Counted from the stretch's first letter, positions 13,936-57,173 are shown. The stretch: 57,173 nt of DNA from a virus (IMGVR_UViG_3300038974_000259:1-57173), one strand, 5' to 3'. Program-made: numbers and translations. Notes: generated by a model not told the origin, from the sequence alone.

Positions 13936-14033
13936 GACTTTGAGAAAATAAGGTTTTCTGGTAAATGCGCCATTTTGGACTAAAATTTTGAAAAGGCACT
14001 TTTAATTCGGCGGGACGATTGTATCCAGCGTGT

Positions 14034-14095
14034 GCGGCCGGAGCTGTCATAATGCGCATGGGGGTGTGGTGTAAGGAACTTTTACCCGCGGCCGC
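14034..14095. repeat. GC-rich intergenic element bounded by GCGGCCGG and GCGGCCGC (divergent copy of the 60-nt element)
   Basis: Minus strand reads GCGGCCGCGGGTAAAA, matching the arms of the elements at 46382 and 55496. Confidence 0.45.
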
Positions 14096-27878: not shown

Positions 27879-30223
27879 ACTTTACTAACTCCAGTAACAA
27901 TGTTATCTTTAATTACAATACAACCCATTGTTGTTCTTGAAACGGTCTCTGCTGGGAGGTCTTTTGCTTTTATACAAAGTGAGCTTTTGTTTCCACAGAT
28001 TAGAATTGTATCATCATCTGAAACTAAACAAGCTCCTGCGCAATTAGCATCTTTAGCGTATACAGTGCCACGACCATTTCTTGCCTGAATCGGGAAGGCA
28101 CTCAATGCGACTCTGCGGCCGAGCCCCTCTTTAGAGAAGATAGCTACAGAATCTGTTTCATCCCTTATAGGCAGGGCACAAATGACAGAATCATTTGGCT
28201 GTAGATTAATACCCTTACAACCCATAGTAACTCTTCCAGAAGCAGGAAATTCAGAACCTTTACATCTAATAGCATATCCGTTTTTGGTAAGCATTAAGAT
28301 TTGTTCATCGCTGACAAGGAAGACTGCGGCCAGGCTATCTCCTTCGTGTAGATTTAGAGCTTTAGTTCCAGTTTTCTTTCTGATACTGCTATATTCGTCG
28401 ATAGATGTGCGCTTAACATAGCCTTGCTTGGTCACAAACATAATAAACTTGGCATCTGTGTCGTGATATATTGAGTAGATAATGGTTGGATTTTCATTTG
28501 AATCCATAGATAGAAGAGCTTTTACAGGAGTACCTTTAGAAGTATTTGTACCTTCTGGAATATCATCAACTATCAGTCGATACATATTACCCTGGTCTGA
28601 AAACACCATTAAACTATCAATAGTGTTCGTGCGGAGCACCATAGAAGTTATATCGTCTTGGGTTTTAACTCCCTTTCCGCCTCTTCTTTGCGCACGGAAT
28701 GAAGTAGTATTTATTCTTTTAATACTTCCACCTTCAGTAAGAATAACTACACATTTTTCTGGAGGAATGGAAGCAATTTTCTTTTCTTCTGTGTCTTTAG
28801 GCTCTGCTATTTGCGCAAGCTCTGTCCTACGAGCGTCACCATATTTATCTACTATAGCTCTCAAACGAATTAAAAGTTCATCTGTGGGATTTTCAAGAAT
28901 AGCATTATAATGTTTAATCTCTTCCTGTAGGGCAGCTATTTCTTCATTCAGTTCAATTTTTTCCAAACCAGCAAGCCTACCAAGTTTCATATCAACAATC
29001 GCCTGGGCTTGCGGCTCGGTGAAATTATATCTGGAACAAAGTTCCGTTTTAGCGGCGGCCGCAGATTTTGAACCTTTAATTAACGCAATAATATTATCAA
29101 TATCTTCAAGAGCTTTTAGCAAGCCCATATCAATTTCTAATTTATTTTGCGTCTTTTTTAAATCGTGTTCTGTTTCGCGTATAATACATTTGCTATTATG
29201 GTCTACATAAATTTTACAACAATCTTTTAAATTTAATTCAGTAGGAGTTTTTCCAACCAGTCCTACCATATTATATGAAAAAGAAGTTTGTAAGTCAGTA
29301 TATTTAAACAACTGTGTAATTATTCGACTAAAATTAGCATCTTTGCCACACTCCAGCACCAATCTAAATCCTTTTTTTCTGGTGCTTTCATTTCTAATAT
29401 GCTTAATTCCTTCGATATTACCTTCGTCGCAAGCTTTACCAATCTGCTCCATAAGGGCTTCGGTCAGGACACCATATGGGATTTCGTAGAAAACTATGTT
29501 ATTATCTTCAAAATCATACTTTCCTCTAATCCTTACAGTGCCATGACCAGTTCGCATAATGGAAGAAATATCATCCTTGTTGATAATAATTCCTCCAGTT
29601 GGAAAGTCTGGGCCAGGAAGCATTGGTTCTTTACCATCAATATAATCAAAGATGGCTTTTGCCACTTCGTTCAAATTATGCGGCGCCCAATTACACGCCA
29701 TCGCAACGCCGATACCAGTATTTGGATTACAAAGAAGATTTGGGAAATAAGAAGGAAGAGTAACTGGCTCATCTTTTGTTTCAGAGTAATTTGGAATAGT
29801 GTCAACAACACCTTTCTTCATACCCATTAACATACCTTCCTCGACTAATGTGCTTAATCTTGCTTCGGTATAACGATATGCGGCAGGTCCATCACCATCT
29901 CTATTTCCCTTTGACCCATGAAAGTCAATAAGTGGATAGCGCATTACCCATTCTTGAGACAATCTGACTAAGGCTCCGTAAATGGAGCTATCACCGTGCG
30001 GATGCCAGTCAGCCATTACATTACCAACTATATTAGCGCACTTAACGTGAGGTTTTTTAGAATAAAAACCTTGATCATAGGCTCCATAGATAATTCTTTT
30101 AGCTACTGGCTTTAACCCGCTTGTAGCATCAGGAATCGCTCGATCGGTATTAACAGCAACAGCATATTCAATAAAGTTTTCACCCAGTTCATCAACAAGG
30201 TCGGTCAAAATTTCATTTGCCAT
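27875..30223 (-). CDS. gyrA: DNA gyrase subunit A
   Basis: GLKPV, HPHGD, AAYRYTEARL, GyrA-box QRRGGKG and pinwheel repeats; TAG-free. Confidence 0.95.
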   Translation of the reverse strand: MANEILTDLVDELGENFIEYAVAVNTDRAIPDATSGLKPVAKRIIYGAYDQGFYSKKPHVKCANIVGNVMADWHPHGDSSIYGALVRLSQEWVMRYPLIDFHGSKGNRDGDGPAAYRYTEARLSTLVEEGMLMGMKKGVVDTIPNYSETKDEPVTLPSYFPNLLCNPNTGIGVAMACNWAPHNLNEVAKAIFDYIDGKEPMLPGPDFPTGGIIINKDDISSIMRTGHGTVRIRGKYDFEDNNIVFYEIPYGVLTEALMEQIGKACDEGNIEGIKHIRNESTRKKGFRLVLECGKDANFSRIITQLFKYTDLQTSFSYNMVGLVGKTPTELNLKDCCKIYVDHNSKCIIRETEHDLKKTQNKLEIDMGLLKALEDIDNIIALIKGSKSAAAAKTELCSRYNFTEPQAQAIVDMKLGRLAGLEKIELNEEIAALQEEIKHYNAILENPTDELLIRLRAIVDKYGDARRTELAQIAEPKDTEEKKIASIPPEKCVVILTEGGSIKRINTTSFRAQRRGGKGVKTQDDITSMVLRTNTIDSLMVFSDQGNMYRLIVDDIPEGTNTSKGTPVKALLSMDSNENPTIIYSIYHDTDAKFIMFVTKQGYVKRTSIDEYSSIRKKTGTKALNLHEGDSLAAVFLVSDEQILMLTKNGYAIRCKGSEFPASGRVTMGCKGINLQPNDSVICALPIRDETDSVAIFSKEGLGRRVALSAFPIQARNGRGTVYAKDANCAGACLVSDDDTILICGNKSSLCIKAKDLPAETVSRTTMGCIVIKDNIVTGVSKV

Positions 30224-41808: not shown

Positions 41809-42366
41809 TTAAAGAAAGTCGTAGCATTCGTCAATCTTTTCTTTCATCTGTTCAATAATTGCGTCTAAATCTACAGGATAACAATTATGAGCATCGACTG
41901 CAACATTATACATATATGGCATATCCATATAGAATAAATCCTTTGAGTGAGTGTGCCCAAATAAGTTTAAAGTCATCTGTGAAAGGGATTCTTTTTCCAG
42001 ATTACCAGTAAGAGTTGGAAAATGAGAGAGATAAAAGTGATATTTTCCGTATTTTAGATAGATTGCGGCCGCCTGTTCTACGACGTTATGAAGCTGGCTG
42101 TAAGCTTCCCAGCGTCTATCTGTATCATGATTACCTCGAACCAGATGAATGTTGCCAGGTAATTCAGATAAAAGAAGCATTCCTGCTTCTAAATCTTGTC
42201 CCAGCATTATATCACCAAGGATATAGAGATGATCGCTGGGCTCCACACAATAATTGAAACGCTCAATGATAGCGTTATTCATTTCTTCTATAGAATTAAA
42301 ACCTCTCGGCTTATAGATAAATTCTCTGTTATGATTAAAATGAAGGTCGCTCGTTATCCAATTCAT
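41809..42366 (-). CDS. Calcineurin-like metallophosphoesterase
   Basis: SDLHFNH, LGD, RGNHD and GHTH. Confidence 0.92.
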   Translation of the reverse strand: MNWITSDLHFNHNREFIYKPRGFNSIEEMNNAIIERFNYCVEPSDHLYILGDIMLGQDLEAGMLLLSELPGNIHLVRGNHDTDRRWEAYSQLHNVVEQAAAIYLKYGKYHFYLSHFPTLTGNLEKESLSQMTLNLFGHTHSKDLFYMDMPYMYNVAVDAHNCYPVDLDAIIEQMKEKIDECYDFL

Positions 42367-43811: not shown

Positions 43812-43821
43812 AAAACAGAAT

Positions 43822-44115
43822 TTACCTGCGGCCGCAGGTGCAGTCGGAGGACTTGTAAAGCATACATTTTTCTTCAATGCAAGGTTGAAATTCTTCTTCC
43901 ATAAATTCCGCCCTTTCAGCAACTATACTCCATGAGTGTTTTTCATTACCTGCCATAAAATATGTCTTTTTCCGGAAAGGGCAGAGTTTTGGAGTTTTTT
44001 CAATATATTGAGGAACTTTTTTTATAGCTTCACAAAAACGCTTCAGGTTTTCAGAGAGTGTATTAAGCTCTGGATCCTCTTGGAAGGTTGGTTTATTTGG
44101 ATACTCGTAGTCCAT
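43822..44115 (-). CDS. Hypothetical protein
   Basis: 97-aa ORF coupled to the RNA ligase. Confidence 0.65.
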   Translation of the reverse strand: MDYEYPNKPTFQEDPELNTLSENLKRFCEAIKKVPQYIEKTPKLCPFRKKTYFMAGNEKHSWSIVAERAEFMEEEFQPCIEEKCMLYKSSDCTCGRR

Positions 44116-45524
44116 TAAACTTCCTCCTGGATATCCTGCGCCTCTTCCATATCTGGTTCAGCAGCCAAATCTTTAGCTATACCTTCCAGAACCTTGAAGT
44201 TAAAGTTTTTGTGCTTATAAGCACAGAATTTTGGACGATTGACAATGCGGATTACAACACCCTCGCGGACATGAGTCTTACCAATAGGGTCTGGACCGTC
44301 ATAGAACTGTTCTGCGATATTTTTGATATATTCTCCAGCAGATACCTCATAGCCTACTGTCATAGTCATATCCTCCATATCGCTACCATTGATATAATCC
44401 TGCCATAGAACAGGAACGCACTTCGCCCCCATTTGCTCGCAACGATAACGCATAAAGTCAGGAGTGTACTCCACAACATCGCCATCTTCGTTAGTCATGG
44501 TCATACGATAGACGTAGAAGTCAGATTGCGGAACTTCAACAGGAAGCTCAAAAGCTCCTATATCATCTATTCCATACTTAACAGCGCATCCATCTGGGTC
44601 GCAACCATAAGAGAAAATAGTAGTCTTGCCGTACTGCTTGGTAAATTCCTTATCTGAAATCTTGCTATTCGCTACAGAAGGCATGATAGGAGTGCCGTTT
44701 GTAGTGAATCCAACAATTTCATAATATACGGTTTCACCCTTGTTTAGCTTGCCTTCGAAGAACAGAGCATGCTGCTTACGGAATTCATTGGAACCGTAGA
44801 AGCCGCCCTCCTCGAAGTTATTGAGAACAACGCGACGAGTTCCAGATACGTAGCCCCAATCATAAATAGGAGTTCCTTCACGCCGCAGGATTCTATCCAG
44901 AAGAGTGCGCTTATATTTTTGAAGCTTCGGTAGATAACCAGTGCGGCCAGAGGTACCATGCATTTTAAGGGTAATCTCAATAAGATCTCCAGGGCGGAAA
45001 GCTTCGAGATTATAAGCAAGCTGTTCAGTATCAGCATGTTCCGCAAACAGTGGCGCTATAGGAACTCTCTTCTTTCGAGTACGATTTCCATCGCTGACAT
45101 GTCCGCGGCGGACATCAACTCTGGGGATATACTTCCGGCAGATTTCATGTCCGTTAACAATTTCAATTTTATCTCCGACTTCAAACTTTGTTTCGCCGGT
45201 ATACTTGAGAGATTCCAGAGGCATAAATAGTCCTTCGGATTTCTCGCCTCGGAGCTTCATCGCGCGGATATTTCGTTTGTCAGGGTCAAGATAACCGCCA
45301 ATATTATTGCCATTTTCGTCCTTTTTACGAACGAGATTATTTTCAGCGCAATATTCTTCGCTTAGCTGGAGGTCTATGGGAAAATAAATTCCCAAATCAT
45401 CAATTTGAGTATTTAAGCCTACGATAACAGAAGCTCCAAAGATTACCGCGATTTGGAGTCTGTCAGCGTTATTATGAGGATGTAGTTCTTTTATTTGAAC
45501 TACATAGCCGCAATGTTCAGACAT
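44115..45524 (-). CDS. RNA ligase (Rnl2/DRB0094-like) with N-terminal OB-like domain
   Basis: HNNADRL N-terminus; TLKMHGT (motif I), YYEIVG, REGVV and YKHK. Confidence 0.85.
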   Translation of the reverse strand: MSEHCGYVVQIKELHPHNNADRLQIAVIFGASVIVGLNTQIDDLGIYFPIDLQLSEEYCAENNLVRKKDENGNNIGGYLDPDKRNIRAMKLRGEKSEGLFMPLESLKYTGETKFEVGDKIEIVNGHEICRKYIPRVDVRRGHVSDGNRTRKKRVPIAPLFAEHADTEQLAYNLEAFRPGDLIEITLKMHGTSGRTGYLPKLQKYKRTLLDRILRREGTPIYDWGYVSGTRRVVLNNFEEGGFYGSNEFRKQHALFFEGKLNKGETVYYEIVGFTTNGTPIMPSVANSKISDKEFTKQYGKTTIFSYGCDPDGCAVKYGIDDIGAFELPVEVPQSDFYVYRMTMTNEDGDVVEYTPDFMRYRCEQMGAKCVPVLWQDYINGSDMEDMTMTVGYEVSAGEYIKNIAEQFYDGPDPIGKTHVREGVVIRIVNRPKFCAYKHKNFNFKVLEGIAKDLAAEPDMEEAQDIQEEV

Positions 45525-45528
45525 ATAA

Positions 45529-46311
45529 TCACTTCTCCTTTATCCAATACCAGTCCATGTATGGAGTATGGTTTGTTAATGCTTTAGAAACGTTATGTGC
45601 GACAGTCTTCTTGTTTGCTTTTGGCTGACTCTTTACAATACGATTGTATGCCCAGGTAATAGCCTGTTCTTTAGATTTAAAATACTTTGGTTTAGCTTCC
45701 TTATTCTTAGCATGAGTGAGTTTGATAATATGCGGCGGGGCTTTAGGCGCTTCTATAATCTTTTGCTCTTCAAATGGACTCTCAATAAGAGGGGGACTAT
45801 TTTTAATATAAGTCATCAATTTTCGCAGTTCAATCGCATCATCCAGAGGGTCATGGGTTTGGTCAGAAATATCAGGTTCAAAATATTTAAGAGCCTTATG
45901 AAGTCCAATAGACTTGGAGTGAAAGAACTTTTTGACCTTGTGCGAATCATCCAAGAGAGAATTCGCAAGATTGAGTACAAAATCTCGGATTTCAGAATCA
46001 TCCATTTTATTTGCTGTGTTAATTAAAAAGATAGGGTCACTATCTCCATAACAGTGGTAAAATACTGGTGTATTTGATTCTGCGCACATTTCACAAATCC
46101 AATTATATAGGTCAGAAAAAGCTTGTTTTGCTTTTGGAGCTCCTATCAGCATCTCTTTTGTGATACCAGTGAGGTTTGTTATGAAGTTTGTAAGTTTGTC
46201 GCCTTTTCGCAGACCTACAAGGCAATCAAAATCACCATATTCGCATGATGCTCCTATAGCAATTACTCTTTCAGAAAATTGAGTTGCCTCAAAGTCAAAA
46301 TATATGTCCAT
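45529..46311 (-). CDS. DEDDh 3'-5' exonuclease
   Basis: YFDFEAT, ITNLTGIT, YGDSD and HDPLDDA. Confidence 0.85.
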   Translation of the reverse strand: MDIYFDFEATQFSERVIAIGASCEYGDFDCLVGLRKGDKLTNFITNLTGITKEMLIGAPKAKQAFSDLYNWICEMCAESNTPVFYHCYGDSDPIFLINTANKMDDSEIRDFVLNLANSLLDDSHKVKKFFHSKSIGLHKALKYFEPDISDQTHDPLDDAIELRKLMTYIKNSPPLIESPFEEQKIIEAPKAPPHIIKLTHAKNKEAKPKYFKSKEQAITWAYNRIVKSQPKANKKTVAHNVSKALTNHTPYMDWYWIKEK

Positions 46312-46343
46312 TGGCTTACCAACCCTTTCATTTTTATATTATT

Positions 46344-46372
46344 ATTATATTATATTTTTATATAAAAATCAA
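46344..46372 (-). promoter_or_regulatory. Sigma-A-like promoter
   Basis: TTGATT-17-TATAAT. Confidence 0.65.
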
Positions 46373-46381
46373 AAAGAAGCT

Positions 46382-46441
46382 GCGGCTGGCGGTGAAGAGG
46401 TCTGAAAGACCAGACCAAAAGTTCATTTCACCGCCGGCCGC
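46382..46441. repeat. 60-nt structured intergenic element, copy A
   Basis: GCGGCTGGCGGTGAA...TTCACCGCCGGCCGC stem; aligns without gaps to 55496..55555. Confidence 0.8.
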
Positions 46442-46444
46442 TAT

Positions 46445-47269
46445 TCACCTTTCAAAAATTGTCGGGAAAACATCATCAGCATAAAACATAGGCGACTTGC
46501 TCAACCACCAGTCAAGTTGTTCTCCGTCTGACTTAAGATAGTCTATCCATCTTTCCCAAATAGCTTTAATATCTTCAGTATCATTAAAGAACTGTTCAAC
46601 ACCAGGTCGCTCAAGTCGGTCAGAGTGATAGTGTGCAAAACACCAAACAGTCCACTTGAAGCACTGACCAAGCTCTTCCAGGAACAGCTCCATAGATTTA
46701 TCAACTTTACTCTGGTCAATACCATTAAGGAATAAGTCAGTAGGCTCCCAGTTAATGGGGCAGGTATGAGAAAGTACAATGTCAACTTCTTCATTAGTTA
46801 AATCTGCTGTACATTGAAGCATTTCCTCTTCAGAAAGTTGTTCATTGTCATACCACCTATATCCCTTTTCAAGTCGATACCACTTATCAACAGAATAAGC
46901 TCCGCCAATCACAGCGACTTTGAATTTCCCAATTCGATAAATACCCCAGTCTTTAAAATACTTGATATTTGGCCACTTCTTTTGGACATAAACTTCACCT
47001 TCTACATCTTCGTCGAAAACAAGCTCCATACCAGGAACATCTTGCGGCCGAGCCTCATGGTTGCCACGGACGCAGTATACCTTAAACTTATACCTTTTGG
47101 ATAAGAAATTTTTCATATGGCTGTCATTCTCGTCCAGGGACCAATTAAGTCCAGCATCGCCAAGGATGATTACAGCGGTTTCTTCGTCTTGTTGAACTTT
47201 TTTATCATAGTTTTTGAACTTGGTGAAATTTCCGTGGCAATCGCCGGTTAAAAGCCAGTGCTTAATCAT
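46445..47269 (-). CDS. Calcineurin-like metallophosphoesterase
   Basis: TGDCHG, LGDAG, RGNHE, GGAYSVD, SHTCP and AHYH. Confidence 0.9.
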   Translation of the reverse strand: MIKHWLLTGDCHGNFTKFKNYDKKVQQDEETAVIILGDAGLNWSLDENDSHMKNFLSKRYKFKVYCVRGNHEARPQDVPGMELVFDEDVEGEVYVQKKWPNIKYFKDWGIYRIGKFKVAVIGGAYSVDKWYRLEKGYRWYDNEQLSEEEMLQCTADLTNEEVDIVLSHTCPINWEPTDLFLNGIDQSKVDKSMELFLEELGQCFKWTVWCFAHYHSDRLERPGVEQFFNDTEDIKAIWERWIDYLKSDGEQLDWWLSKSPMFYADDVFPTIFER

Positions 47270-47355
47270 ATAAATGGTCTCCTTTTATAATTAAAGAGAG
47301 TATGATATAGAAAAACGCTTTTTAAAATGAAATCATTATATAGCCACTTCATTTT

Positions 47356-47637
47356 TTATTTATCCCATCTATGTTCTAAATCAAGAGGACGATTTGATAT
47401 TATTCTCAAATGTCCACAGACTTTACAATAGCACTCTGTTTTATCCTCTGATAAGTATACTCGGTCAGTCTTAAGAGGCTGAGAACAACATAGATATTTA
47501 TCTTTTTTGCTGCGGCCGCAAGGAATAGTCCTTTTCTTGCCAAAATGTTTATATAAAAACCAGTCTATCTCAGCAAAGAAGCGTCTATTTATATCTATAT
47601 ATATTTCAAGAGGCAGGTATTTATTGTTAATTTTCAT
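47356..47637 (-). CDS. Hypothetical Cys-rich protein
   Basis: 93-aa ORF with CKVCG. Confidence 0.6.
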   Translation of the reverse strand: MKINNKYLPLEIYIDINRRFFAEIDWFLYKHFGKKRTIPCGRSKKDKYLCCSQPLKTDRVYLSEDKTECYCKVCGHLRIISNRPLDLEHRWDK

Positions 47638-47962
47638 TAGTTTTCCTCCTGGGCTTTCGTATAATTTTTACAATCTTCGGCTGCTGCGGCCTCATATCCG
47701 CCCCGCAATTAGGGCAAAAGTTCACCAAGTAATCTTCTATGAACCCGCACAATGGGCATTCGTAATAGTCTATCATGTGTGCATAATCTCTGTTTTTTGG
47801 AGGGGTTATCCATCGTGCCCGAACCACAGGCCGAACATCGGCGTCAGGAATGGATTCAATATTGCTTAAGCAAGCGTTCCATCCCGCATTGAAATAATCT
47901 GCTTCGAAGAATCCTCGCTCTTTCTCTTTTGGCAGCGCCTCGCGTTCAATATATTTAGCCAT
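47627..47962 (-). CDS. Zinc-ribbon phage protein
   Basis: IPDADVRPVVRARW...CPLCG...FCPNCGADM. Confidence 0.75.
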   Translation of the reverse strand: MAKYIEREALPKEKERGFFEADYFNAGWNACLSNIESIPDADVRPVVRARWITPPKNRDYAHMIDYYECPLCGFIEDYLVNFCPNCGADMRPQQPKIVKIIRKPRRKTNEN

Positions 47963-47971
47963 TTTTTCACC

Positions 47972-48220
47972 TCATAGCAAAGTAATTAGTTTTAATATAA
48001 AAAGTATTGCTAATGTAAAAACAGAGCAGACAAGTATGGCAGAAGATATAAGTACAGCTATCCATAGTATCTTTAGAAGAAGAGAATTTTCCTCATCTTT
48101 ATCAAGTTTATACGAGAGAAAAGAATATAACATAAATAAAAAAACAGTTATAAGTACTGATATATAGGATATCAAGAGTGTAATTACAGGCATTGAGTAG
48201 TTCATTATATCTTTTCCCAT
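47972..48220 (-). CDS. Two-TM membrane protein
   Basis: Hydrophobic 82-aa ORF in the operon. Confidence 0.6.
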   Translation of the reverse strand: MGKDIMNYSMPVITLLISYISVLITVFLFMLYSFLSYKLDKDEENSLLLKILWIAVLISSAILVCSVFTLAILFILKLITLL

Positions 48221-48501
48221 TCCTCCAACGCGCGTTGTTTGTAATACTTGTATTCATCAATGGAAGCACAATGATTCCAAATGAATCCATCAATACTGTG
48301 TTCTACGCAAGATCTTGAGTCCCACAAAATCCAATCTTTAAAATAACGAAGTTCTGCTATTTTCTCCCAAAAGGTTTCTGGAAAGGGGTGCTGTTTCATT
48401 ATAATTGCCTTTATCCTAACATAGTTTTTATATTCTCTTTTTATTATTTTAACTGTATATCCAGTTTGATCAACATAATAATCTTTATACTTCACTTCCA
48501 T
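48205..48501 (-). CDS. Hypothetical protein
   Basis: 98-aa ORF overlapping its neighbours. Confidence 0.6.
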   Translation of the reverse strand: MEVKYKDYYVDQTGYTVKIIKREYKNYVRIKAIIMKQHPFPETFWEKIAELRYFKDWILWDSRSCVEHSIDGFIWNHCASIDEYKYYKQRALEEWEKI

Positions 48502-48688
48502 CGAATTCTACCTCCATACTCCCATCCGGATTTTTTGCTATTATCATTTGATCCAGCTCAGCAAAAAAGGCATCTCTTCTCTGAATAATCTCCACCTGCT
48601 GGCATCTCTCAATGAGAGCGTTAATTTCATCTTCACTCATCACAAGGTATGAGTCTTCATAATGAGCCATTAGCAATACCTTCCTCAA
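48485..48688 (-). CDS. Hypothetical protein
   Basis: 67-aa ORF. Confidence 0.55.
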   Translation of the reverse strand: MRKVLLMAHYEDSYLVMSEDEINALIERCQQVEIIQRRDAFFAELDQMIIAKNPDGSMEVEFDGSEV

Positions 48689-48701
48689 TCATTTGTGTTC
48701 A

Positions 48702-48914
48702 TTACTCCTTATACTTACCTTGTTCATAAACGTATTCCAAGTATCTAAAATGGTCTTCTGCGGCCCTTTCTGTTTCAAAAGACCGTTTTGAGCTCCAGCC
48801 GCAGCTTCTACAATATGGGTAGCACACTGGACTGAGAGTATCCCAATCTATGAACCTTGTAATGGTTATCTCACCGCCGCAATAAAAACAGCGCATGATA
48901 TTATCGCTCATCAA
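48702..48914 (-). CDS. Lar-like zinc-finger protein
   Basis: CFYCGG...CRSCG...FETERAA. Confidence 0.55.
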   Translation of the reverse strand: MMSDNIMRCFYCGGEITITRFIDWDTLSPVCYPYCRSCGWSSKRSFETERAAEDHFRYLEYVYEQGKYKE

Positions 48915-49226
48915 TTACCCTTCCTCTGCCGGAATGATAGTGGGAGCGTTTTCTATATTATCAATGTGAACATATCGATAAGGCTTTCCGTTAAGTGGAA
49001 CAGCCGTACTTATTGGCAACGCATCCAGATCGCCCAGTCGTCCATGCGGTGGAACTGAGATTACGTTGTATGTTCCTTCAAATGTGCCAATATAGCTTTT
49101 TAACTCTACTTTACCATCTGGATAAACTACTATTGCGCCGTTGAGATTATATACCTCAGGAGTGTTATTTCTCTTTGAATAATCAGACAATTCCGGAAGA
49201 TTTACGCCTTCAATATAAATACTCAT
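48915..49226 (-). CDS. Hypothetical phage protein
   Basis: PPHGRLGD...IENAPTIIPAEE. Confidence 0.7.
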   Translation of the reverse strand: MSIYIEGVNLPELSDYSKRNNTPEVYNLNGAIVVYPDGKVELKSYIGTFEGTYNVISVPPHGRLGDLDALPISTAVPLNGKPYRYVHIDNIENAPTIIPAEEG

Positions 49227-49639
49227 TACTGACCTCCGAAATCTTCGGCGATCTCATGGGCGGTAATCCTTACGGGCTTTAGCATTTGCGGCAGAAACTC
49301 AAGCTCATAACTATACGGACTTACTTCTGTTCCGCTCAGATCCTCTACCGTATACATCGTATAATCGTTCAGATATACAAAGTGCTTTTGGTATACACCT
49401 TTTTCAACCTCTACAATCACAGACAGTTCATCATTGCCCTCGTTTTTCAGAGCAAAATTTCCGGTCATCTGCATGAGCACAGTATCGGTGCGGATATTGA
49501 ACACGGTCAACCGGCGCGTCACGTTGAAATTGTCTGCTTCTTTTGATACATTATATGCGACACGGTCGCTCTCGCGGCATCCAGCCAGAACGCTACACAT
49601 CAAAACAAGTGCAATAACGATTACGAGGATTTTCTTCAC
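49226..49639 (-). CDS. Putative lipoprotein
   Basis: Signal peptide with LAGC lipobox. Confidence 0.8.
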   Translation of the reverse strand: MKKILVIVIALVLMCSVLAGCRESDRVAYNVSKEADNFNVTRRLTVFNIRTDTVLMQMTGNFALKNEGNDELSVIVEVEKGVYQKHFVYLNDYTMYTVEDLSGTEVSPYSYELEFLPQMLKPVRITAHEIAEDFGGQ

Positions 49640-49749
49640 TGTTTTTTCTCCTTTCGCTTTCCTTTTTGTTCATTTACTGCTCTTTTTAAGACTTTACATC
49701 CACCGCATCTATTTCTATTTCTACAAAACCAACAGTTATCATTATCCAT
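49636..49749 (-). CDS. Small Cys-rich hypothetical protein
   Basis: 37-aa ORF MDNDNCWFCRNRNRCGGCK, GTGA overlap with the next gene. Confidence 0.4.
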   Translation of the reverse strand: MDNDNCWFCRNRNRCGGCKVLKRAVNEQKGKRKEKKQ

Positions 49750-49789
49750 GAAAAACCACGGCGGCGGTTGAGGTCTTGGCTTTCTTTTT

Positions 49790-50650
49790 TTATATTTCAT
49801 TCTTTTGTTTTATTTCTACACTTATAACTTCTTTTACAGTGAATAAATCATTTATTACAGAATGTTTCATAATTTGATAAGCTATGTCATCAAGAAGGAA
49901 ATCAACAGAGCTGTCTACTGGGTCATTTTTATGTTTTTCCACAAAATCATCGCAGACATTGTGAATATGATTATAGCTTTTATTTGCTATTTCACGGGCG
50001 TCTTCAAGGTTATAATAACCCATTTTAACATCTTTGAGGTAGTCAGACTTTTTTGAAATTAAACAATCTCCATATGGTTCACCTGCTAAATATCTATCAA
50101 GATATTCTTCAACTCTTAAAAGATGATGTAGTTGTTTTGGATCGTATCCAAACTTCTCAATCCAAGTCATGCGAGAGGGATAATGATGTTCCATAGCGAA
50201 ATATTTTTCAGATGCGATACCCATCATAGATTTTACACTTCTGACAGGATTATAATGCGTAATTTCTTCTCTGTGCTCAATTAATCTATTCCACTGTTTC
50301 TGATATTCAAAATTCCTTATAATAAAATAAGGAGTATATAAAATCTCCAGAAAATTAAGATTTTGCTTTCTAAAAGTCGTCATATATAAACGGACATCTT
50401 TTAGGTCAATGTGTTCGTTGTTTTCTCTGATATGAGTGGTACTACGTGGTTTATACGCAAGAGCAATTTCTTTGAAAGTTGGTGTAGTAATACACTTTGT
50501 GTCTATATCAGAGTTTTCGTGCTCTAAACCATAGTTTTGTGAACCTTGTAAAAAAACTCCAACGACATTTCTCTCTGGAATCATACTGATAGCTTCTGTA
50601 TAGTGATTAAGGACTTTGTCCATGATATAAGAATCAGAATGAAAATTCAT
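49790..50650 (-). CDS. Pol-beta-superfamily nucleotidyltransferase
   Basis: QGSQNYGL...SDIDT, NFLEILYT and YDPKQLHH. Confidence 0.85.
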   Translation of the reverse strand: MNFHSDSYIMDKVLNHYTEAISMIPERNVVGVFLQGSQNYGLEHENSDIDTKCITTPTFKEIALAYKPRSTTHIRENNEHIDLKDVRLYMTTFRKQNLNFLEILYTPYFIIRNFEYQKQWNRLIEHREEITHYNPVRSVKSMMGIASEKYFAMEHHYPSRMTWIEKFGYDPKQLHHLLRVEEYLDRYLAGEPYGDCLISKKSDYLKDVKMGYYNLEDAREIANKSYNHIHNVCDDFVEKHKNDPVDSSVDFLLDDIAYQIMKHSVINDLFTVKEVISVEIKQKNEI

Positions 50651-50874
50651 TTCAACTTCTCCTTTCCAAAATCACTGAGCCAGTATACCATTTTGCCAGA
50701 AGAGTCGGGGCTCTTTCCAGCATATCCGGCGGAGATAAGAGGTCTCATAGTTCCAGAAATAGATTGAGGAGAAATCGACTCGCCAAATTTGCGATAGATA
50801 GCACCTTTAATCTGTACGCTATTCATACAGTCAAAGTCTTTCAGCACACTGATAATCATTTCTTTATTAGTCAT
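50647..50874 (-). CDS. Winged-helix DNA-binding protein
   Basis: AGGAGG RBS, MTNKEMI...SPQSISGTMRPLISAG. Confidence 0.7.
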   Translation of the reverse strand: MTNKEMIISVLKDFDCMNSVQIKGAIYRKFGESISPQSISGTMRPLISAGYAGKSPDSSGKMVYWLSDFGKEKLK

Positions 50875-50910
50875 ATTGAGAACCTCCTTATATAATTCTT
50901 TTATATTATT

Positions 50911-50991
50911 ATTATATAATAATTTTAATAAAATATCAACTTGGGGCAAATTTAATTAAGTTCTCTTCTTTATTTTTCATCTATTATAGAA
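50911..50991. promoter_or_regulatory. Back-to-back promoters: sigma-A-like (minus) and phage-specific (plus)
   Basis: TTGATA-17-TATAAT at 50939..50911; GGGCAAA-N27-CATCTATTATAGAA from 50944. Confidence 0.6.
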
Positions 50992-51016
50992 TAGGTTTAA
51001 AATAAGGAGGGTTTTT

Positions 51017-51361
51017 ATGCCTTTAATGACGTGGTTAAGTTCAGAGGGCCGTTGTCATTATAATACAGAGGAAGGAGATTATTCTAATCCAATTCCAGTA
51101 GATTATATGATGATTCCTCCGACTTTTATTACTTATAATGTTTAGCCAATAGAAAAGATAGACGAACAGAAAGTTAGAGAGACCTTATCTAAGATTTTTG
51201 AAGAAAAATCTGAAAGTTTTATTTCTCGCATATAGCTTTTAGTTGAAGAAAAAATGTCTGCTGACATAAATATGTCTATTGATGAGGCCATTCGGCAAGC
51301 ATTTTCTGAGTTAGGCGCGATTTCTAACGAAGAAATTGATGTAATTGTAGAAAATAATTAA
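51017..51361 (+). CDS. Putative virion fibre-associated protein (code 15)
   Basis: AAGGAGG RBS; 114 aa, 2 TAG; ends AISNEEIDVIVENN. Confidence 0.7.
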
Positions 51362-51380
51362 AAGAAAGGAAGATAATAAG

Positions 51381-52388
51381 ATGCCCTATACAAACAAAAA
51401 GTTTCTTGATTCCGCAGGTACCACTCATTTATGGGAAAAGATTAAGGCGGAATTAGATAAGAAAGGTCAAGTAAATAGTGTTTCTGCTGCTGATAATTCA
51501 ATTATCGTTGGAGGAACTGCTTCTGCCCCAACTCTATCAGTAAGAATTTCTCCAAGAGAAGGCAACTCATTAAGCCTTATTGCTCAAAACGGCAGTGAAG
51601 GTTTATATGTTAACGTTCCTACCGCTGCTGTATACAGCATTTCCAAAGATGATGAAGCTGCTTCTGGATATGCCGCAACCTATCACTTAACTGCGGACGG
51701 CGTTGAAACGGGCGCCGCAATCAACATTCCTAAAGATATGGTAGTATCTTCTGGTCAAGTTAAGACTGTTTCTACCGCAGATACCCCATATACTGGCGCT
51801 GCAGTTGGTGATACTTATATTGAACTGACTCTGGCAAATGCTACAAATGACAAGATTTATATTCCTGCTAATAGCCTGGTTGAATATGTCACTTCTGGCT
51901 CTGGCGCAAATGACGCAATTCAAATCGCAATTGATTCTAATCATTAGGTCACTGCTTCTATTAAAGCAGGTAGTATTACTGAAACAGAGTTAGATTCTAA
52001 CATAGTTGCTGCTTTAAGCAAGGCAGATAGCGCAATACAGAGCGTCACTGCTGGATCAACCAACGGCACCATTAGTGTTGATGGCTCTGAGGTTAGTGTT
52101 GCTGGTCTTGGAACGGCTGCCTTTGCTTCCGCTGCGACATTTGCGACAGCTGCTCAAGGAGCATTAGCTGATACTGCTGTTCAAAGCGTTATTGATGGTA
52201 CTGCTTCAAGTGGAAATGGTACTATTATTGTTGATGGTTCTGCTGTGACCGTTTATGGGTTAAGTACTGCTGCCTTTATGTCTGCTGATTCATTCGATGC
52301 TGCTGGTGAAGCAGCTGCCGTATATAGCGCAATTATTGCTCTAACAAATTCTGAAATTGATGCTGCTATTTCTGCGGCTAGCGTATAA
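51381..52388 (+). CDS. Putative virion fibre/decoration protein (code 15)
   Basis: 335 aa via one TAG at 51945; internal repeat ADxAxQSV..G..NGTI.VDGS.V.V.GL.TAAF; ends ALTNSEID. Confidence 0.75.
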
Positions 52389-52394
52389 GTAAAA

Positions 52395-52420
52395 TAAGGG
52401 GAGAGAAATCTCCCCTTATA
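52395..52420 (+). terminator. Intrinsic terminator
   Basis: ATAAGGGGAGA/TCTCCCCTTAT stem. Confidence 0.75.
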
Positions 52421-52444
52421 TTTTGAGAAAAAGGAAGTTTAGAT

Positions 52445-53965
52445 ATGTTAGCAAAGAAATTTCTTGATGCAGACGGCTTAACATACTTTGCCCAATTACT
52501 AAATGATTATCCGAATAATGAAATTCTTGGAGCAGTTATTGATGCAATAGACGGAGAATTAAGCACAAAAGCACCCAATACGTTAGCCACATAGTCTACT
52601 CCTGGACTCATGTCTCCAGCAGATAAAACCGTTATAGATAGTTTTAGTCCAAATATTGCTGAGACATTAACCCCATTAGCAAGCACTTTATATATAGCAA
52701 ATGCTAAGCAAGAAAATGCATTAGGATGCTTGTTAAACTTTGAGCCTAGAATTGGTGCTCGAATTCGTACTACTAATTTATTAAATGTGAATTTGATTAT
52801 TAGTGAATCATATCTTAGCGCGAGTGGAACGGTCACTTCAAGCATTAATGACTATTTAGGAGATTTTATTCCTGTTTCTCCAGGAGATGACATATATTAC
52901 ACTGGAATAGTTGGACCAACAACAGCATCTTCAGTAAACCGTCGTCTTCATGTATATACTGCAAATAAAACGTGGATTAAATAGATGAATTATGCTGGTA
53001 GTTTAAGAGTTGGAGATAGTTGGAGTGCGCATGGTACGGTGCCATCAAACGGCGCATATGTAAGAGTTTCTTGGGGTATTACAGATTATAATATTTAGAT
53101 AACTGTTGGAGCTCCAAGCGGCTATATGCCTTATGAAATTACTCCATTTATACCTCTTTCTACTACAGAAGATCCTGGCACATTAACATTATCGCATTAT
53201 ACCGATTAGACACAAGCAACAGGATAGACCTATAATATTTCCATTCCATCTAATGCAGGCTCAATTTATGCTTGTTAGGTTGACCCTATTGCAGGAATTT
53301 TAACTTCTACTGCTGGATATATAGGGTCTTATAATGGAGAATCCTTGCCTGGTTAGTGGTTTTCCGATAGAGACACTTATGTTGAGAATACTTCGCCAAG
53401 CATTGGCGCACAGGTTATTTATATGCTTGATGAGGAAGATTATGTAGAATATAATCTTACACCTATAATAATTTCTATGTATTATCATACAAATTACTTT
53501 TGTTGTGATTAGAATAGTACAATATTGTCTTTTATTTATTATGCTGAGACTTTAGCAGCTAATCATATTACCGCATACGAAGGTATAAAAGTAGGAAGTA
53601 TGGATTTTTCTGATGCGGATGTAGTGACTTGGAATAATACAGTGAATTTGATTTCTACTAAAGCAAATATAGACTCTCCAACTTTTACTGGAACGCCAAG
53701 AGCTCCTAATCCTACCATTGGAGATAGTTCTACTCGATTAGCAACTACAAGTTATGTTTCGGCAAGAATGAGTAATAATATTGCTCCTTCTGAATCAACT
53801 GCGAAAGCAACAAAAGACTATTCGGTTGGAAAGTATTTAATGTATAATGGATAGTTGTATAAAGTAATTAGTCCAATTTCAAATGGAGAATCTTTAACTA
53901 TAAATACAAATATATCAGCAACAGATGTTGCTACAGAGTTGAATTTATTATTCTCTCAAATTTAA
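52445..53965 (+). CDS. Tail fibre / receptor-binding protein (code 15)
   Basis: ATQ(TAG)STPGLMSPADK, SPTFTGTPRAP...LATTSYV fibre repeat, C-terminal YSVGKYLMYNGQLY; 506 aa with about 9 TAG. Confidence 0.8.
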
Positions 53966-53986
53966 GATAAAGGAGATTTAATAAAA

Positions 53987-54268
53987 ATGCAAAGACAAAT
54001 TTATGAAGTATATGCGAAAGTCGTTGATAGCACCGGAGCATATAATACTCTAAGTGGTTATCCAAAAGTATTTGACTCTCGTTCTTATGATAATGATATA
54101 GACAAAACTTTAAAGCGCGCTACTGGTGAATTTGCTGATACATGGGGCGCTTTTTGTAAGAGAGATGATCATCAATTACAAATGGTTCTTTTAATGACCG
54201 CAAGTGGTTATGTTATTGATAAAAAATGCTTAGGAGATATTGCAGATTTACCTGATGAAGAAAGCTAA
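53987..54268 (+). CDS. Hypothetical protein
   Basis: 93-aa ORF with AGGAG RBS. Confidence 0.75.
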   Translation: MQRQIYEVYAKVVDSTGAYNTLSGYPKVFDSRSYDNDIDKTLKRATGEFADTWGAFCKRDDHQLQMVLLMTASGYVIDKKCLGDIADLPDEES

Positions 54269-54307
54269 AAAAGGGGAGATACCTTAATTGGTATCTCCCC
54301 TTTTTTT
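54267..54307. terminator. Bidirectional intrinsic terminator
   Basis: A-tract, GGGGAGATACC/GGTATCTCCCC, T-tract. Confidence 0.9.
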
Positions 54308-54309
54308 AT

Positions 54310-54735
54310 TTATTCTAAAAAGTAATTAGAAAATAAATTAAAAATCTTTTGCCAGTCTTCTTCTCTAATTCCACCACAGCGATACTTTTCCAAAAGGTTG
54401 TAATAACAGATTGTCAAATATTCGCTGTCCATCCATCCTCGATAAAGGTTATCAAAACTTACTTCATTCCAATCTGGCTTTAATGAAACTATTTTGTCCC
54501 ATACGCTATTCATCGTGCGATAATTTCTGGAAGTCATTTCATCGCGGATTAGTTTGGAGTATGTGATAAAATGGTCAAAATCATAATCGAGAACTTTATT
54601 TACCAAGATATGATTTGGAGTACCCTTTGTTTGAATACTGCCAGCTATGGCGGAGCATTCTCTCCATTGAGCCACAAGCTGTTCTCTTGGTAATACGGAA
54701 ATTAAAGATTTGTGCCAGAGACGAATGATAATCAA
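54310..54735 (-). CDS. Pyrimidine dimer DNA glycosylase-like protein (DenV superfamily)
   Basis: RLWHKSLISVLPREQLVAQWREC...NHILVN. Confidence 0.75.
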   Translation of the reverse strand: MIIIRLWHKSLISVLPREQLVAQWRECSAIAGSIQTKGTPNHILVNKVLDYDFDHFITYSKLIRDEMTSRNYRTMNSVWDKIVSLKPDWNEVSFDNLYRGWMDSEYLTICYYNLLEKYRCGGIREEDWQKIFNLFSNYFLE

Positions 54736-55439
54736 CCCTCTTTCTAATATAAAAATTGTGTTGTTTCTAACTATAAATCCTGTATTGTAATTTTATCTTT
54801 CTGCGTATAAGGGATGCGAATTAATGGTATCTTATGATCTAGGCAATATTGATTTTTTTGTAAATCATGTTTTTGTGTTTTTTCAAAATTTTCTTGAGAA
54901 TTCCATCCAGTTTTTGAGATATATTGTGAAAAATGTTGCTCTCCGTCATATTCAATTAAATACACTAATTGATTATTTTGAAAAATCCCAAAATCAAAAC
55001 GCAGTTTTCTGCCGCTTTCACTGATTAAATCTTTAAAACTATACTAAGTTTTAAATAATATCTGATTTTTTCGTAATATTTCAGCAATAAGAATTTCTAT
55101 TTTTGAATTAATACATCCACAACTCTACTATAACCCCTATCTAAGAGCGTCTCCTTTTACAGTGATTTTATTTCCACAATCACAAACACAATCCCAGTAT
55201 AATCTTCTATCACTTCTAATTGATTTATTTAATACGGTTAGTTTACCAAACCTCTATCCGGTTAAATCTTCATAAAACTTTTTTGGATGAATTCCATTTT
55301 CTTTTAGCCTTCTACTTATTGTATCATTAGAACATCCAAAATATTTTGCTAATTCATAAGTATTCATTTTATGAGAAGTATAATTTTTTATAATAAAATT
55401 AATTTTTTCAGCATCCCACTAAATTCTTTTTCCAGGCAT
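54732..55439 (-). CDS. Free-standing putative homing endonuclease: HTH + Zn module + Vsr/DUF559-like nuclease (code 15)
   Basis: DLTGQ(TAG)RFGKLTV, WDCVCDCG, SCGC, LRFDF, IEYDGEQH and LIRIPY; 8 TAG including a TAG-TAG pair. Confidence 0.85.
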
Positions 55440-55495
55440 ATTTATCACTTTCCTTTTTATTTTATTATATAATATTTTTTTAATAAAATAAAAGT

Positions 55496-55555
55496 GCGGC
55501 TGCCGGTAAAACGCTCTCTGTGATTAGACAAAAAGTTCGTTTTACCTGAGGCCGC
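55496..55555. repeat. 60-nt structured intergenic element, copy B
   Basis: GCGGCTGCCGGTAAAACG...CGTTTTACCTGAGGCCGC, extended by AAAAGT/ACTTTT. Confidence 0.8.
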
Positions 55556-55565
55556 ACTTTTTATT

Positions 55566-57113
55566 TTAGTGGATACAGGCGTATCTCTCGCTGTCCAACT
55601 TATCGTACATCAGGTCGTACGCCGTGACGCCCTTGAGCACCTGTTCGAAGATGACAGGACTGAAGCCGGAGACGTAGCTCACATGGCCGGAGACACGCAT
55701 AGGAATGTTGTCCTGACGAGCCTGAACATTCCAAAACACAAGGTTCGGCATCTTGTAGCCCGCAGCATTCCAACGCTTCTCGATGGTCTCGAAAAGGGTC
55801 TCGTTAGCGAACTGGCCACCGTAACTCCAGCGGTCGCGAGAACGACTGCCGCCGCGCACGCAGTCATTAAACTCCATGTCGGAGATAATGATTACGGAAG
55901 CAGGAATCTCGTCCTGAGAGCAGTGGTTCTGCTTCGCGATGCGGAGCATCTGGTCGAAGACAGCCTCGACGTTGGTGCTTCCACCCCAGTCAGAACGAAC
56001 CATACGATTGATCTTATCGACGAAGTCGACACCCTCAATCTCCACAAAGGTAGGATCGTTGCTGAAGGTGAAAAAGTGGTTGGCGAAGTCGCCCTTATTG
56101 CGCTCGGCGCAATACATGGCGATAGACAGAGCGACAGCCAGAGGGTCGCCATACATGGAACCGGAAGTATCCGCAACGCAGATACCGTTGAAGGTGCAGC
56201 CCTGGAAGTAATCCGCGAGGTTCTCCCAGTACTTGTTGACCATCAGACGCTCAGTATCATCGAGAGCCTGAGACTTGCGGTTGCTACCATAGTAGTAGCC
56301 CCAGTTGCCGAAGGCCATAGCCTCCTTGACAACCTCGTAAGGATAGAGCGCCTTGGCGTTAACCTTGGTGTTCTTGTCCTTGGCGAAATCCTCGTAGGAC
56401 TGGATATCCTTCTCGGATTTCATGCGCTCGAGATCATGACGCGCGAACGCGTTCTTGTAGATCATGCCAGCGCGAGAAGGAATCTTATCGAACTCGATCT
56501 CGTCCCAACGTCCAGCGGACATGAGGCGCTCCAGAACGCGGATGCGCTCACGGAGGATAGACAGAGTCTTGCGGTACTCCTTGTGGTTCATGCCCAGGAA
56601 GCGGCGAGTCTTGTCGGCCAAGACGCGGGAGTCGCGAGAGCTGGTGTTCTCGGATTTCAGCCACTTCGCCAGCAGGGAAGGAGTCTGACACTGGACATCA
56701 AGTTCCAGCTGCTTACGCATAAGCGTAAAAGCGTCCTTCTCCAGTGGAGTACCTACGAAGGTGTAGAGGTCGTCCCAGCGACCAAACTCGGGGACGTACT
56801 TGAGGTTCCGCCTCATCGCGGGAGTATGCTCGCGCGCAAGCCACTTGGTGACTATGCGGAAAAATCTGCGCTCGCCCTGTCCACCACGCACGTCGCGCAG
56901 ATAGAACAGACACTTCAGCGCATATGCCTCATCCTCGTTAAATGCTTTCGCGAAGAGGTTGATAACATCGGCATCGGAGCGAGTTCTATATGCTCCACCG
57001 AGAGCGAACAGGTCGAGCAGACCGTTCAGGGTGGACTTATAGGTAAGAGCGCCATTCTCGGTATAGGTGTAGTTGGACTCACTCTTAAGAGCGCTCATAA
57101 AAGTATTCGCCAT
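55566..57113 (-). CDS. DUF2828-family protein with C-terminal vWA domain
   Basis: TENGA, LRDVRGGQGER, GRWDDL, LLAKW, DTSGSM MIDAS, STN, ISDMEF and VFWNV; TAG-free and GC-rich. Confidence 0.88.
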   Translation of the reverse strand: MANTFMSALKSESNYTYTENGALTYKSTLNGLLDLFALGGAYRTRSDADVINLFAKAFNEDEAYALKCLFYLRDVRGGQGERRFFRIVTKWLAREHTPAMRRNLKYVPEFGRWDDLYTFVGTPLEKDAFTLMRKQLELDVQCQTPSLLAKWLKSENTSSRDSRVLADKTRRFLGMNHKEYRKTLSILRERIRVLERLMSAGRWDEIEFDKIPSRAGMIYKNAFARHDLERMKSEKDIQSYEDFAKDKNTKVNAKALYPYEVVKEAMAFGNWGYYYGSNRKSQALDDTERLMVNKYWENLADYFQGCTFNGICVADTSGSMYGDPLAVALSIAMYCAERNKGDFANHFFTFSNDPTFVEIEGVDFVDKINRMVRSDWGGSTNVEAVFDQMLRIAKQNHCSQDEIPASVIIISDMEFNDCVRGGSRSRDRWSYGGQFANETLFETIEKRWNAAGYKMPNLVFWNVQARQDNIPMRVSGHVSYVSGFSPVIFEQVLKGVTAYDLMYDKLDSERYACIH

Positions 57114-57173
57114 ATTAATTTCTCCTTTTTCTCTTATTGATTTCCTCTTGGACAAGAGGATTTATAAAATCTT

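Follow-up and report, generated by a model that had tools for sequence, protein, structure and literature searches.

The closest described counterparts of the element considered here are the PeSLs (promoter-early stem-loops) of T4-type phages (Arbiol et al. 2010, PMC2839356; Comeau et al. 2014, PMC4122927). As described there, a PeSL cassette joins a stop codon and an AT-rich tract to a stem-loop, which matches rrnB T1 in terminating strength, and to a sigma-70 promoter; such cassettes have also been associated with indels. The element itself is a 60-nt hairpin that occurs twice, at 46382-46441 (copy A) and 55496-55555 (copy B), both on the minus strand, in a linear record of the IMG/VR virus collection (IMGVR_UViG_3300038974_000259; CheckV completeness 35%). 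This whole record, 57,173 bases long, was analysed and is called the window; it is also G000, and G001-G007 and the L-numbered stretches are related or compared records. As in the PeSLs so described, a stop codon, an AT-rich tract, a G+C-rich stem-loop, a sigma-70-type promoter and a ribosome-binding site follow one another in the same order, the arrangement is repeated, and the cassettes lie at junctions where gene content differs between relatives. However, the window phage is not of the T4 type (it has PolIII-alpha, gyrase A and B and NAD ligase, and reads TAG as sense), so its cassette is an analogue and not a member of that family. Unlike the PeSLs, the present stem-loop is 60 nt long with a conserved interior, always lies upstream of the -35 hexamer and is found in one or two copies per genome, and its recombination is something that we infer. 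On balance, the hairpin is best regarded as the stem-loop half of a PeSL-like terminator/promoter cassette, in which it would act as an intrinsic terminator.

The two copies are each exactly 60 nt long, align without gaps and agree at 43 of 60 positions, against a background of 14.4 ± 3.3 matches to A for all other 60-mers of the window on both strands, the best unrelated one reaching 32. A first-pass annotation of the window, which singled out this pair, had claimed the equal length, the gapless alignment, a set of shared sequence blocks, and a position just after a minus-strand stop codon and just before a sigma-A-like promoter, and all of these statements are accurate. Copy A lies 3 nt past the TGA of the ORF at 46445-47269(-) and copy B begins 10 nt past the TAA of the ORF at 55566-57155(-). 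They are followed, 9 nt past A and 3 nt past B, by the sigma-70-type promoter TTGATT-N17-TATAAT (46344-46372, minus) and the promoter-like sequence TTTATT-N17-TATAAT (55464-55492, minus), respectively. The strand of the element is set by the loop motif GAACTTTT, and in copy A the strand carrying this motif is the sense strand of the flanking genes. In comparison with shuffled sequences, copy A folds to -36.7 kcal/mol on the minus strand (z -4.6) and -41.5 on the plus strand (z -7.2), and copy B to -37.0 (z -9.1) and -34.8 kcal/mol (z -7.0). The arms form terminal inverted repeats of 15-17 bp, and the similarity between A and B ends exactly where these repeats end. Rfam 15 gave no gathering-score match in the window, and an E-value scan of L006, L007 and L130 yielded over the element only far-sub-threshold matches to miRNA-type hairpins.

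Full copies number five, each exactly 60 nt, in four related phage records: A and B of the window and one each in G001, G002 and L130, with a maximum of two per record. The census rests on pattern scans of viral, metagenome and prokaryote contig collections together with a covariance model, which matches A with 81.1 bits and B with 83.9 bits. Among viral contigs the pattern scans found real copies only in G001 and G002; L003 and L182 were chance matches in which the second arm is absent. Of 31 matching loci in metagenome contigs, only L130 and L146 (the latter being the record of G002) are related, the others being high-G+C, unrelated DNA. The 22 loci in genome contigs are all chance matches, with a second arm that agrees at no more than 8 of 17 positions. 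The covariance model, run over three whole records and 80 DUF2828 loci (the best 80 of at least 284 IMG/VR contigs that encode relatives of the DUF2828 protein next to copy B), found no additional copy; one weak match, at 29008-29065 (E 0.013), is an alanine-run site in gyrA. Related genomes, which the first-pass annotation had proposed to scan, yielded both further copies (G001, G002 and L130) and covariation. The copies B, G001, G002 and L130 all stand at the head of a denV-like operon, downstream of the DUF2828 region, and the promoters after B and after the L130 copy have almost the same sequence. These four most plausibly represent a single regional locus; copy A is a paralogous copy found in this phage only.

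It is clear that the arms evolve as the two sides of a hairpin or inverted repeat. The compensatory changes noted between A and B at pairs 13/48 (G-C to A-T) and 8/53 (G-C to C-G) are correct, and with all five copies pair 9/52 is also altered on both sides, which gives three such outer pairs (8-53, 9-52 and 13-48). Over the 17-bp outer and 5-bp inner helices of the five copies, pairing holds in 91.8% of the cells but drops to 40-53% once the partners are slid; just 4-5 of 500 shuffles did as well in pairing and covariation, although five related sequences make for weak statistics. The idea of a discrete, repeated and co-varying hairpin unit has held up. The proposal of a paired operator leaves the covariation of the two arms within a copy unexplained. 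The interior has a fixed polarity, since the loops agree at 14-25 of 26 positions when compared in one orientation and at 7-11 when compared in the other; the block R-AACTTTT beside the 5' arm is retained in all five copies, and the GAACTTTT strand is the sense strand in four of the five. The interior of G001 is flipped relative to its orthologous flanks, between records whose DUF2828 proteins (G001 and G002) are 91% identical and whose elements agree at 56 of 60 positions. This resembles the small hairpin-loop inversions of chloroplast non-coding DNA, in which close relatives differ in the orientation of the segment enclosed by inverted repeats. In the same phage group an ordinary terminator just past the DUF2828 stop shows the same behaviour, since L070 and L073 have the same terminator with an inverted loop (AGAAAA against TTTTCT), and a programmed switch or transposition is thus not needed to account for the flip.

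One line of evidence for the terminator/promoter reading is what the relatives carry at the same places. At the locus of copy A, G002, G003, G004 and G006 have a canonical hairpin of 8-10 bp, immediately next to the same TTGATT...TATAAT promoter that precedes the exonuclease orthologue. At the locus of copy B, 63 of 77 assessable DUF2828 loci (80 fetched, three too short) have an uninterrupted hairpin with a T-tract that starts no more than about 15 nt past the stop. Among the best 80, the closest relatives, L011, L012 and L013, whose DUF2828 proteins are 87%, 87% and 85% identical, also have ordinary terminators there. That A and B occupy the slots of the relatives' short canonical terminators favours the terminator reading; the suggestion that the element is more than a terminator is not supported, both copies standing exactly where relatives have such terminators at the same promoter. 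Upstream of each copy is a stop codon or a terminator, and downstream is a sigma-70-type promoter, with a TTGAYT-like hexamer (TTTATT after B) 3-14 nt downstream of all five copies, followed by a 17-nt spacer and TATAAT. A T-rich tract lies 3' of all five; it directly adjoins the stem in B, G001 and G002, starts 3 nt away from it in A and is broken up in L130. An A-rich tract lies 5' of the hairpin in four of the five. The stem of copy B runs on into the A-tract and the T-tract beside it and so takes the form of a bidirectional terminator. The likeness to rho-independent, bidirectional terminators comprises a G+C-rich hairpin right after the stop, a T-tract 3' and an A-tract 5'. The difference is that the element has a stem of 17 bp and a structured interior of 26 nt where the ordinary terminators of this phage have stems of 7-21 bp and loops of 3-10 nt, and that its sequence is conserved across loci and genomes.

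Comparison of the gene junctions suggests how such a cassette may move. At one junction G001 has terminator, element and promoter and G003 has the terminator only; since G001 has both element and promoter where G003 has neither, the two are gained or lost as one unit. Indel or replacement junctions are thus seen between G001 and G003 and between copy A and the short terminators of G002, G003, G004 and G006. The promoter part of the cassette is present at dozens of sites in G002, G003 and G006, and gene content near the denV-like locus is variable with respect to a homing-endonuclease-like gene, a 115-aa ORF and a tRNA. A second family of G+C-rich hairpins in G001 and G002, centred on GCCCGGGC, also speaks for cassettes of this kind. 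In the mechanism proposed here, the hairpin would be transcribed with the upstream gene, and its 17-bp G+C-clamped stem, short distal helix and T-rich tract would end or attenuate transcription, thereby insulating the strong sigma-70-type promoter 3-14 nt downstream. In this phage alone, copy A would have taken the place of the ordinary terminator ahead of the exonuclease gene, probably by ectopic recombination between intergenic cassettes. The stems are built from the over-represented palindrome of the clade (GCGGCCGCAGGTRAA), for which a terminator may be the cheapest place to hold two further copies of the motif.

Several observations weigh against this reading. The T-tract of copy A begins 3 nt past the stem, and in G001 the DUF2828 stop is followed by a canonical terminator before the element is reached, which makes the element redundant there as a terminator. 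A hairpin of 60 nt with a 26-nt interior far exceeds the ordinary terminators of these phages, and the exact length of 60 nt and the block R-AACTTTT, kept in five of five copies, are not needed for termination, although common descent could explain both. Finally, two copies at most per genome are few for a repeat of the PeSL type.

The arms of the hairpin lead to a second subject, a short palindrome dispersed through the window. The sequence GCGGCCGC has 11 sites in the window against 0.10 expected, and none of 100 shuffles exceeds one site. One of these, at 29055-29062, encodes Ala-Ala-Ala in gyrA, and the others start at 2355, 14088, 17802, 21480, 22883, 34304, 37865, 42065, 43828 and 47512. 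Ranked by over-representation, TGCGGCCG (z 17.6), which overlaps GCGGCCGC, comes first among the 8-mers of the window and GCGGCCGC (z 15.9) second, and the top three consist of GCGGCCGC with the overlapping TGCGGCCG and CTGCGGCC. Another palindrome, TTCCGGAA, ranks fourth (z 9.2), with five window sites at 1637, 17397, 33005, 43970 and 49191. In the relatives GCGGCCGC is found 5 times in G001, 17 in G002, 6 in G003, 3 in G004 and 2 in G007; because the counts fall to 0 in G005 and G006, it is confined to one sub-clade. The pooled consensus of 34 sites from G000, G002 and G003 is TTYACCTGCGGCCGCAGGTRAA, with T at position -1 in 56 of 68 half-sites, and this 22-bp sequence is the right arm and the left arm of the element overlapped on their NotI core. 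The link between the arms and the dispersed sites is real, and the relation that had been suspected between them is borne out, TTYACCTGCGGCCGCAGGTRAA being both arms fused. The arm consensus itself, with no more than one mismatch, has 10 matches in the window against 0.29 expected, among them the single occurrence at 43821-43835(-) noted earlier, and the near match reported at 23534 reads AGGCCGCAGGTAAA. A different octamer palindrome, GCCCGGGC, is over-represented in G002 (17 sites) and G001 (15 sites) and has none in G000, G003 and G006; its G002 sites cluster in 106020-121422 (L100-L101), in G+C-rich intergenic hairpins with promoter-like tails.

Most sites of GCGGCCGC lie in genes and are written by codon choice. 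Seven of the ten coding sites of the window read Ala-Ala-Ala. The fraction of Ala-Ala-Ala stretches coded GCG-GCC-GCN is 6 of 12 in G000 (0.26 expected), 9 of 40 in G002 (1.07 expected), 6 of 44 in G003 (0.62 expected) and 0 of 28 in G006. Orthologues without a site are unchanged in length at six of the eight assessable sites and differ either in their residues (NNV or GHV at 42065) or in the codons of their alanine runs (gyrA of G006); the sites at 22883 and 34304 fall in alignments with gaps of 1-4 residues. Of the eight assessable positions, one is shared with G003 and none with G002. Because the length of the orthologues is kept and few positions are shared, most sites (6 of 8 assessable) are DNA-level substitutions with fast turnover rather than insertion footprints. 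The nearest parallel is HIP1 (GCGATCGC), the highly iterated palindrome of cyanobacteria, an 8-bp G+C-rich sequence found mostly in genes and without an agreed function. GCGGCCGC is likewise a G+C-rich octamer palindrome far above expectation, mainly intragenic and produced through codon choice. It differs in belonging to a phage clade, in its 22-bp consensus, in its density of about one site per 5-26 kb, in its preference for the Ala-Ala-Ala frame and in its fast positional turnover.

These features suggest a rival to termination as the primary role, namely that the hairpin is an intergenic display of TTYACCTGCGGCCGCAGGTRAA at the DNA level, as a hairpin, a cruciform or two sites, read by a phage or host factor, with termination incidental or additional. 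Candidate roles would include recombination, replication, nicking, modification and nucleoid binding, all of them compatible with the terminator/promoter reading. In its favour are the consensus of the 34 sites, which reproduces the two arms, the evidence that the motif is under selection or drive as DNA (the excess of sites and the codon choice), and the orthologues of equal length with other residues or other alanine codons. The two NotI cores within one copy lie 52 bp apart, about five helical turns, and the short palindrome alone also stands in terminator slots. One such palindrome, ACCTGCGGCCGCAGGT (43824-43839), overlaps the TAA stop of the ORF at 43822-44115(-), with a canonical terminator and a TTGATT-N17-TATAAT promoter coming after it; in G002 another stands after a tRNA gene and before a promoter very similar to that of B. 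However, the arms co-vary within a copy instead of keeping to a fixed consensus, which a hairpin fits better than two independent sites do, and close relatives exist without the element. Searches for a reader of the motif among ParB_N and C5-methylase families were empty in five of five records. The homing-endonuclease-like family, considered as such a reader, was rejected as it also occurs in G006, where the motif is absent. Fifty ORFs of G002 have a homologue in G003 and none in G006; ten of them, when scanned, included no obvious DNA-binding reader, and one had N6/N4-methylase-like motifs by eye with no Pfam match. As an account of the hairpin this reading is possible though it falls well short of probable. 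Only tentatively, too, and a shade more readily, can TTYACCTGCGGCCGCAGGTRAA be proposed as a clade-specific genomic signal of TAG-recoded jumbo-class phages, of which the element would be the intergenic hairpin or cruciform form, with a function beyond termination.

In the early mRNA of T7, intercistronic hairpins offer a parallel for a further alternative, that the element acts on RNA, as an RNase III-type site, a 3' stabiliser or the source of a 3'-UTR-derived small RNA, through an irregular hairpin of about 22-25 bp. Helix length and internal loop would suit a substrate of a double-strand RNase, and on the GAACTTTT strand only, which is sense in four of the five copies, the inner helix alternates between U-G and U-A at pairs 23-40 and 24-39, the opposite strand having mismatches there. 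Yet the interior is inverted in G001 while the rest is kept, the inner helix of copy A is in a different register, and a place right before a promoter, with a T-tract, suits a terminator, so that a role of this kind is unlikely. The broader suggestion of an undescribed structured RNA is still conceivable, but there are only five copies in all, no Rfam family matches and the interior is flipped in one of the copies.

Less probable still, indeed improbable, is a miniature mobile element that inserts into GCGGCCGC with partial duplication, of the MITE (miniature inverted-repeat transposable element), REP (repetitive extragenic palindrome) or GC-cluster kind. REP/BIME, MITE-like repeats and the GC clusters of mitochondria are likewise short, imperfectly palindromic sequences that lie at the 3' ends of genes and are rich in G+C although the genome is A+T-rich; the present element differs from them in its tiny copy number and in having neither target duplication nor empty site. 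It does have terminal inverted repeats, past which A and B cease to be alike, a patchy distribution among close relatives and two orientations at one locus. Against this, no empty GCGGCCGC was found at the orthologous loci of A or B, where the slots hold unrelated terminators, and no more than two copies per record and five in total emerged from the viral, metagenome and prokaryote scans. In addition, the dispersed sites are codon substitutions, and a flipped loop is also found in an ordinary terminator. The insertion into GCGGCCGC with a 3-bp duplication, as originally envisaged, thus finds no counterpart at orthologous loci, and two copies carry the full GCGGCCGC at both ends, which does not fit such a duplication. 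What survives of the mobile or recombination element is a recombination-prone cassette, patchy in occurrence and moving with its promoter. That the element is a Y-RNA-like partner of the adjoining DUF2828/VWA protein, which looks Ro/TROVE-like by its PHROG name, is scarcely credible: B does lie 10 nt past the DUF2828 gene and A does lie in a cluster of RNA ligase, exonuclease and phosphoesterase genes, but only one of the 80 DUF2828 loci in the model scan has the element (G002), and there 1.5 kb away, and neither an Rfam match nor a tRNA-like module was found.

A looser third copy had also been reported at 14034-14095. This stretch (minus strand) is a degenerate half copy with one intact arm, TTTTACCCGCGGCCGC, and an outer GCGGCCG, placed between a canonical terminator and a promoter; with a single arm and a fold z of +0.07 (minus) and -1.18 (plus) it cannot be counted as a copy, and it escapes the covariance model at E <= 10. 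Possibly it is what is left of a decayed copy. The region 13950-14095, in which it lies, is a G+C-rich, non-coding stretch of about 120 nt between the same terminator and promoter, and apart from the palindrome itself nothing in relatives corresponds to its G+C-rich part.

The genes around the two copies are on the minus strand. The metallophosphoesterase gene (46445-47269) ends 3 nt before copy A, and the RNase_T-type exonuclease gene (45529-46311) is served by the promoter after it, which is kept upstream of the exonuclease gene in relatives. The DUF2828/DUF7788/VWA gene (55566-57155; PHROG 850, 'RNA-binding protein') ends 10 nt before copy B, and its region has about 55% G+C against 36.5% for the genome. 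Between the promoter of B, which has a near-identical counterpart after the L130 copy, and the pyrimidine-dimer glycosylase (denV-like) gene (54310-54735), whose orthologues come after the hairpin in G001, G002 and L130, lies a gene with a helix-turn-helix and a DUF2726-type nuclease (54732-55448), with eight in-frame TAG codons, the product of which looks like a free-standing homing endonuclease. This homing-endonuclease-like family has Cys-rich repeats, about 11 paralogues in G002 and 2 in G006, and some GCGGCCGC sites of G002 and G003 fall within its members.

The window, which belongs to a large phage of the gut or rumen, has 36.5% G+C and genes predominantly on the minus strand. Its module for replication and the metabolism of nucleic acids comprises PolIII-alpha, a Dda-like helicase, NAD ligase, gyrase A and B, RNA ligase, the RNase_T-type exonuclease, two metallophosphoesterases and the DUF2828/DUF7788/VWA protein. 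Several of its genes are open only when TAG is read as sense; besides the homing-endonuclease-like gene, in-frame TAG codons number nine in 52445-53965(+) and two in 51345-52388(+). In the complete, 200-kb relative G002, 28 tRNA genes lie within a 20-kb stretch (L102), and two of them (L102 15824-15899 and 16108-16182) have the anticodon CTA. Given the TAG-interrupted ORFs and these tRNAs, the window is a fragment of a phage of about 200 kb that reads TAG as sense, a reassignment already known among gut phages. In the same part of G002, at 152327-155432 (L102 12327-15432), a radical-SAM enzyme is encoded beside a 200-aa protein of Cys-x-x-Cys repeats, followed by a Thg1-like tRNA-His guanylyltransferase. 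The five best DNA datasets (share 0.54-1.00) are one bioreactor metagenome and four sheep-metagenome runs of one study, and the bioreactor metagenome may be the source sample; RNA runs contain just 0.04-0.05 of the window words. Among the contigs of the sequencing runs, an X2 contig extends over 52314-56724 with about 97% identity, which places the B locus in a related strain as well; copy A lies outside this contig. A megablast search of the phage GenBank collection with 44000-52000 gave no match.

By itself the hairpin is a modest result: it is a stem-loop of the terminator type, unusually long and conserved in sequence, which would extend the PeSL idea of mobile terminator/promoter cassettes to unrelated, uncultured large phages that use TAG as a sense codon. 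Of wider significance is the motif that the arms carry, a G+C-rich palindrome of 8-22 bp that is about 100-fold over-represented in an A+T-rich phage and that we consider more interesting than the hairpin itself. Because the motif is confined to a sub-clade, is made by unusual codon choice and turns over quickly between relatives, the pattern of sequences points to DNA-level selection or to a drive by repair or recombination. To our knowledge such selection or drive has not been described for phages, and a literature search for an over-represented phage palindrome of the GCGGCCGC type found nothing relevant. If the tentative proposal of a genomic signal is true, TTYACCTGCGGCCGCAGGTRAA would have its counterparts in HIP1, Chi or uptake sequences and would keep being introduced into genes in the form of Ala-Ala-Ala codons, and the hairpin could serve these phages, for example, in recombination, in the nicking or modification of DNA, or in protecting DNA ends.

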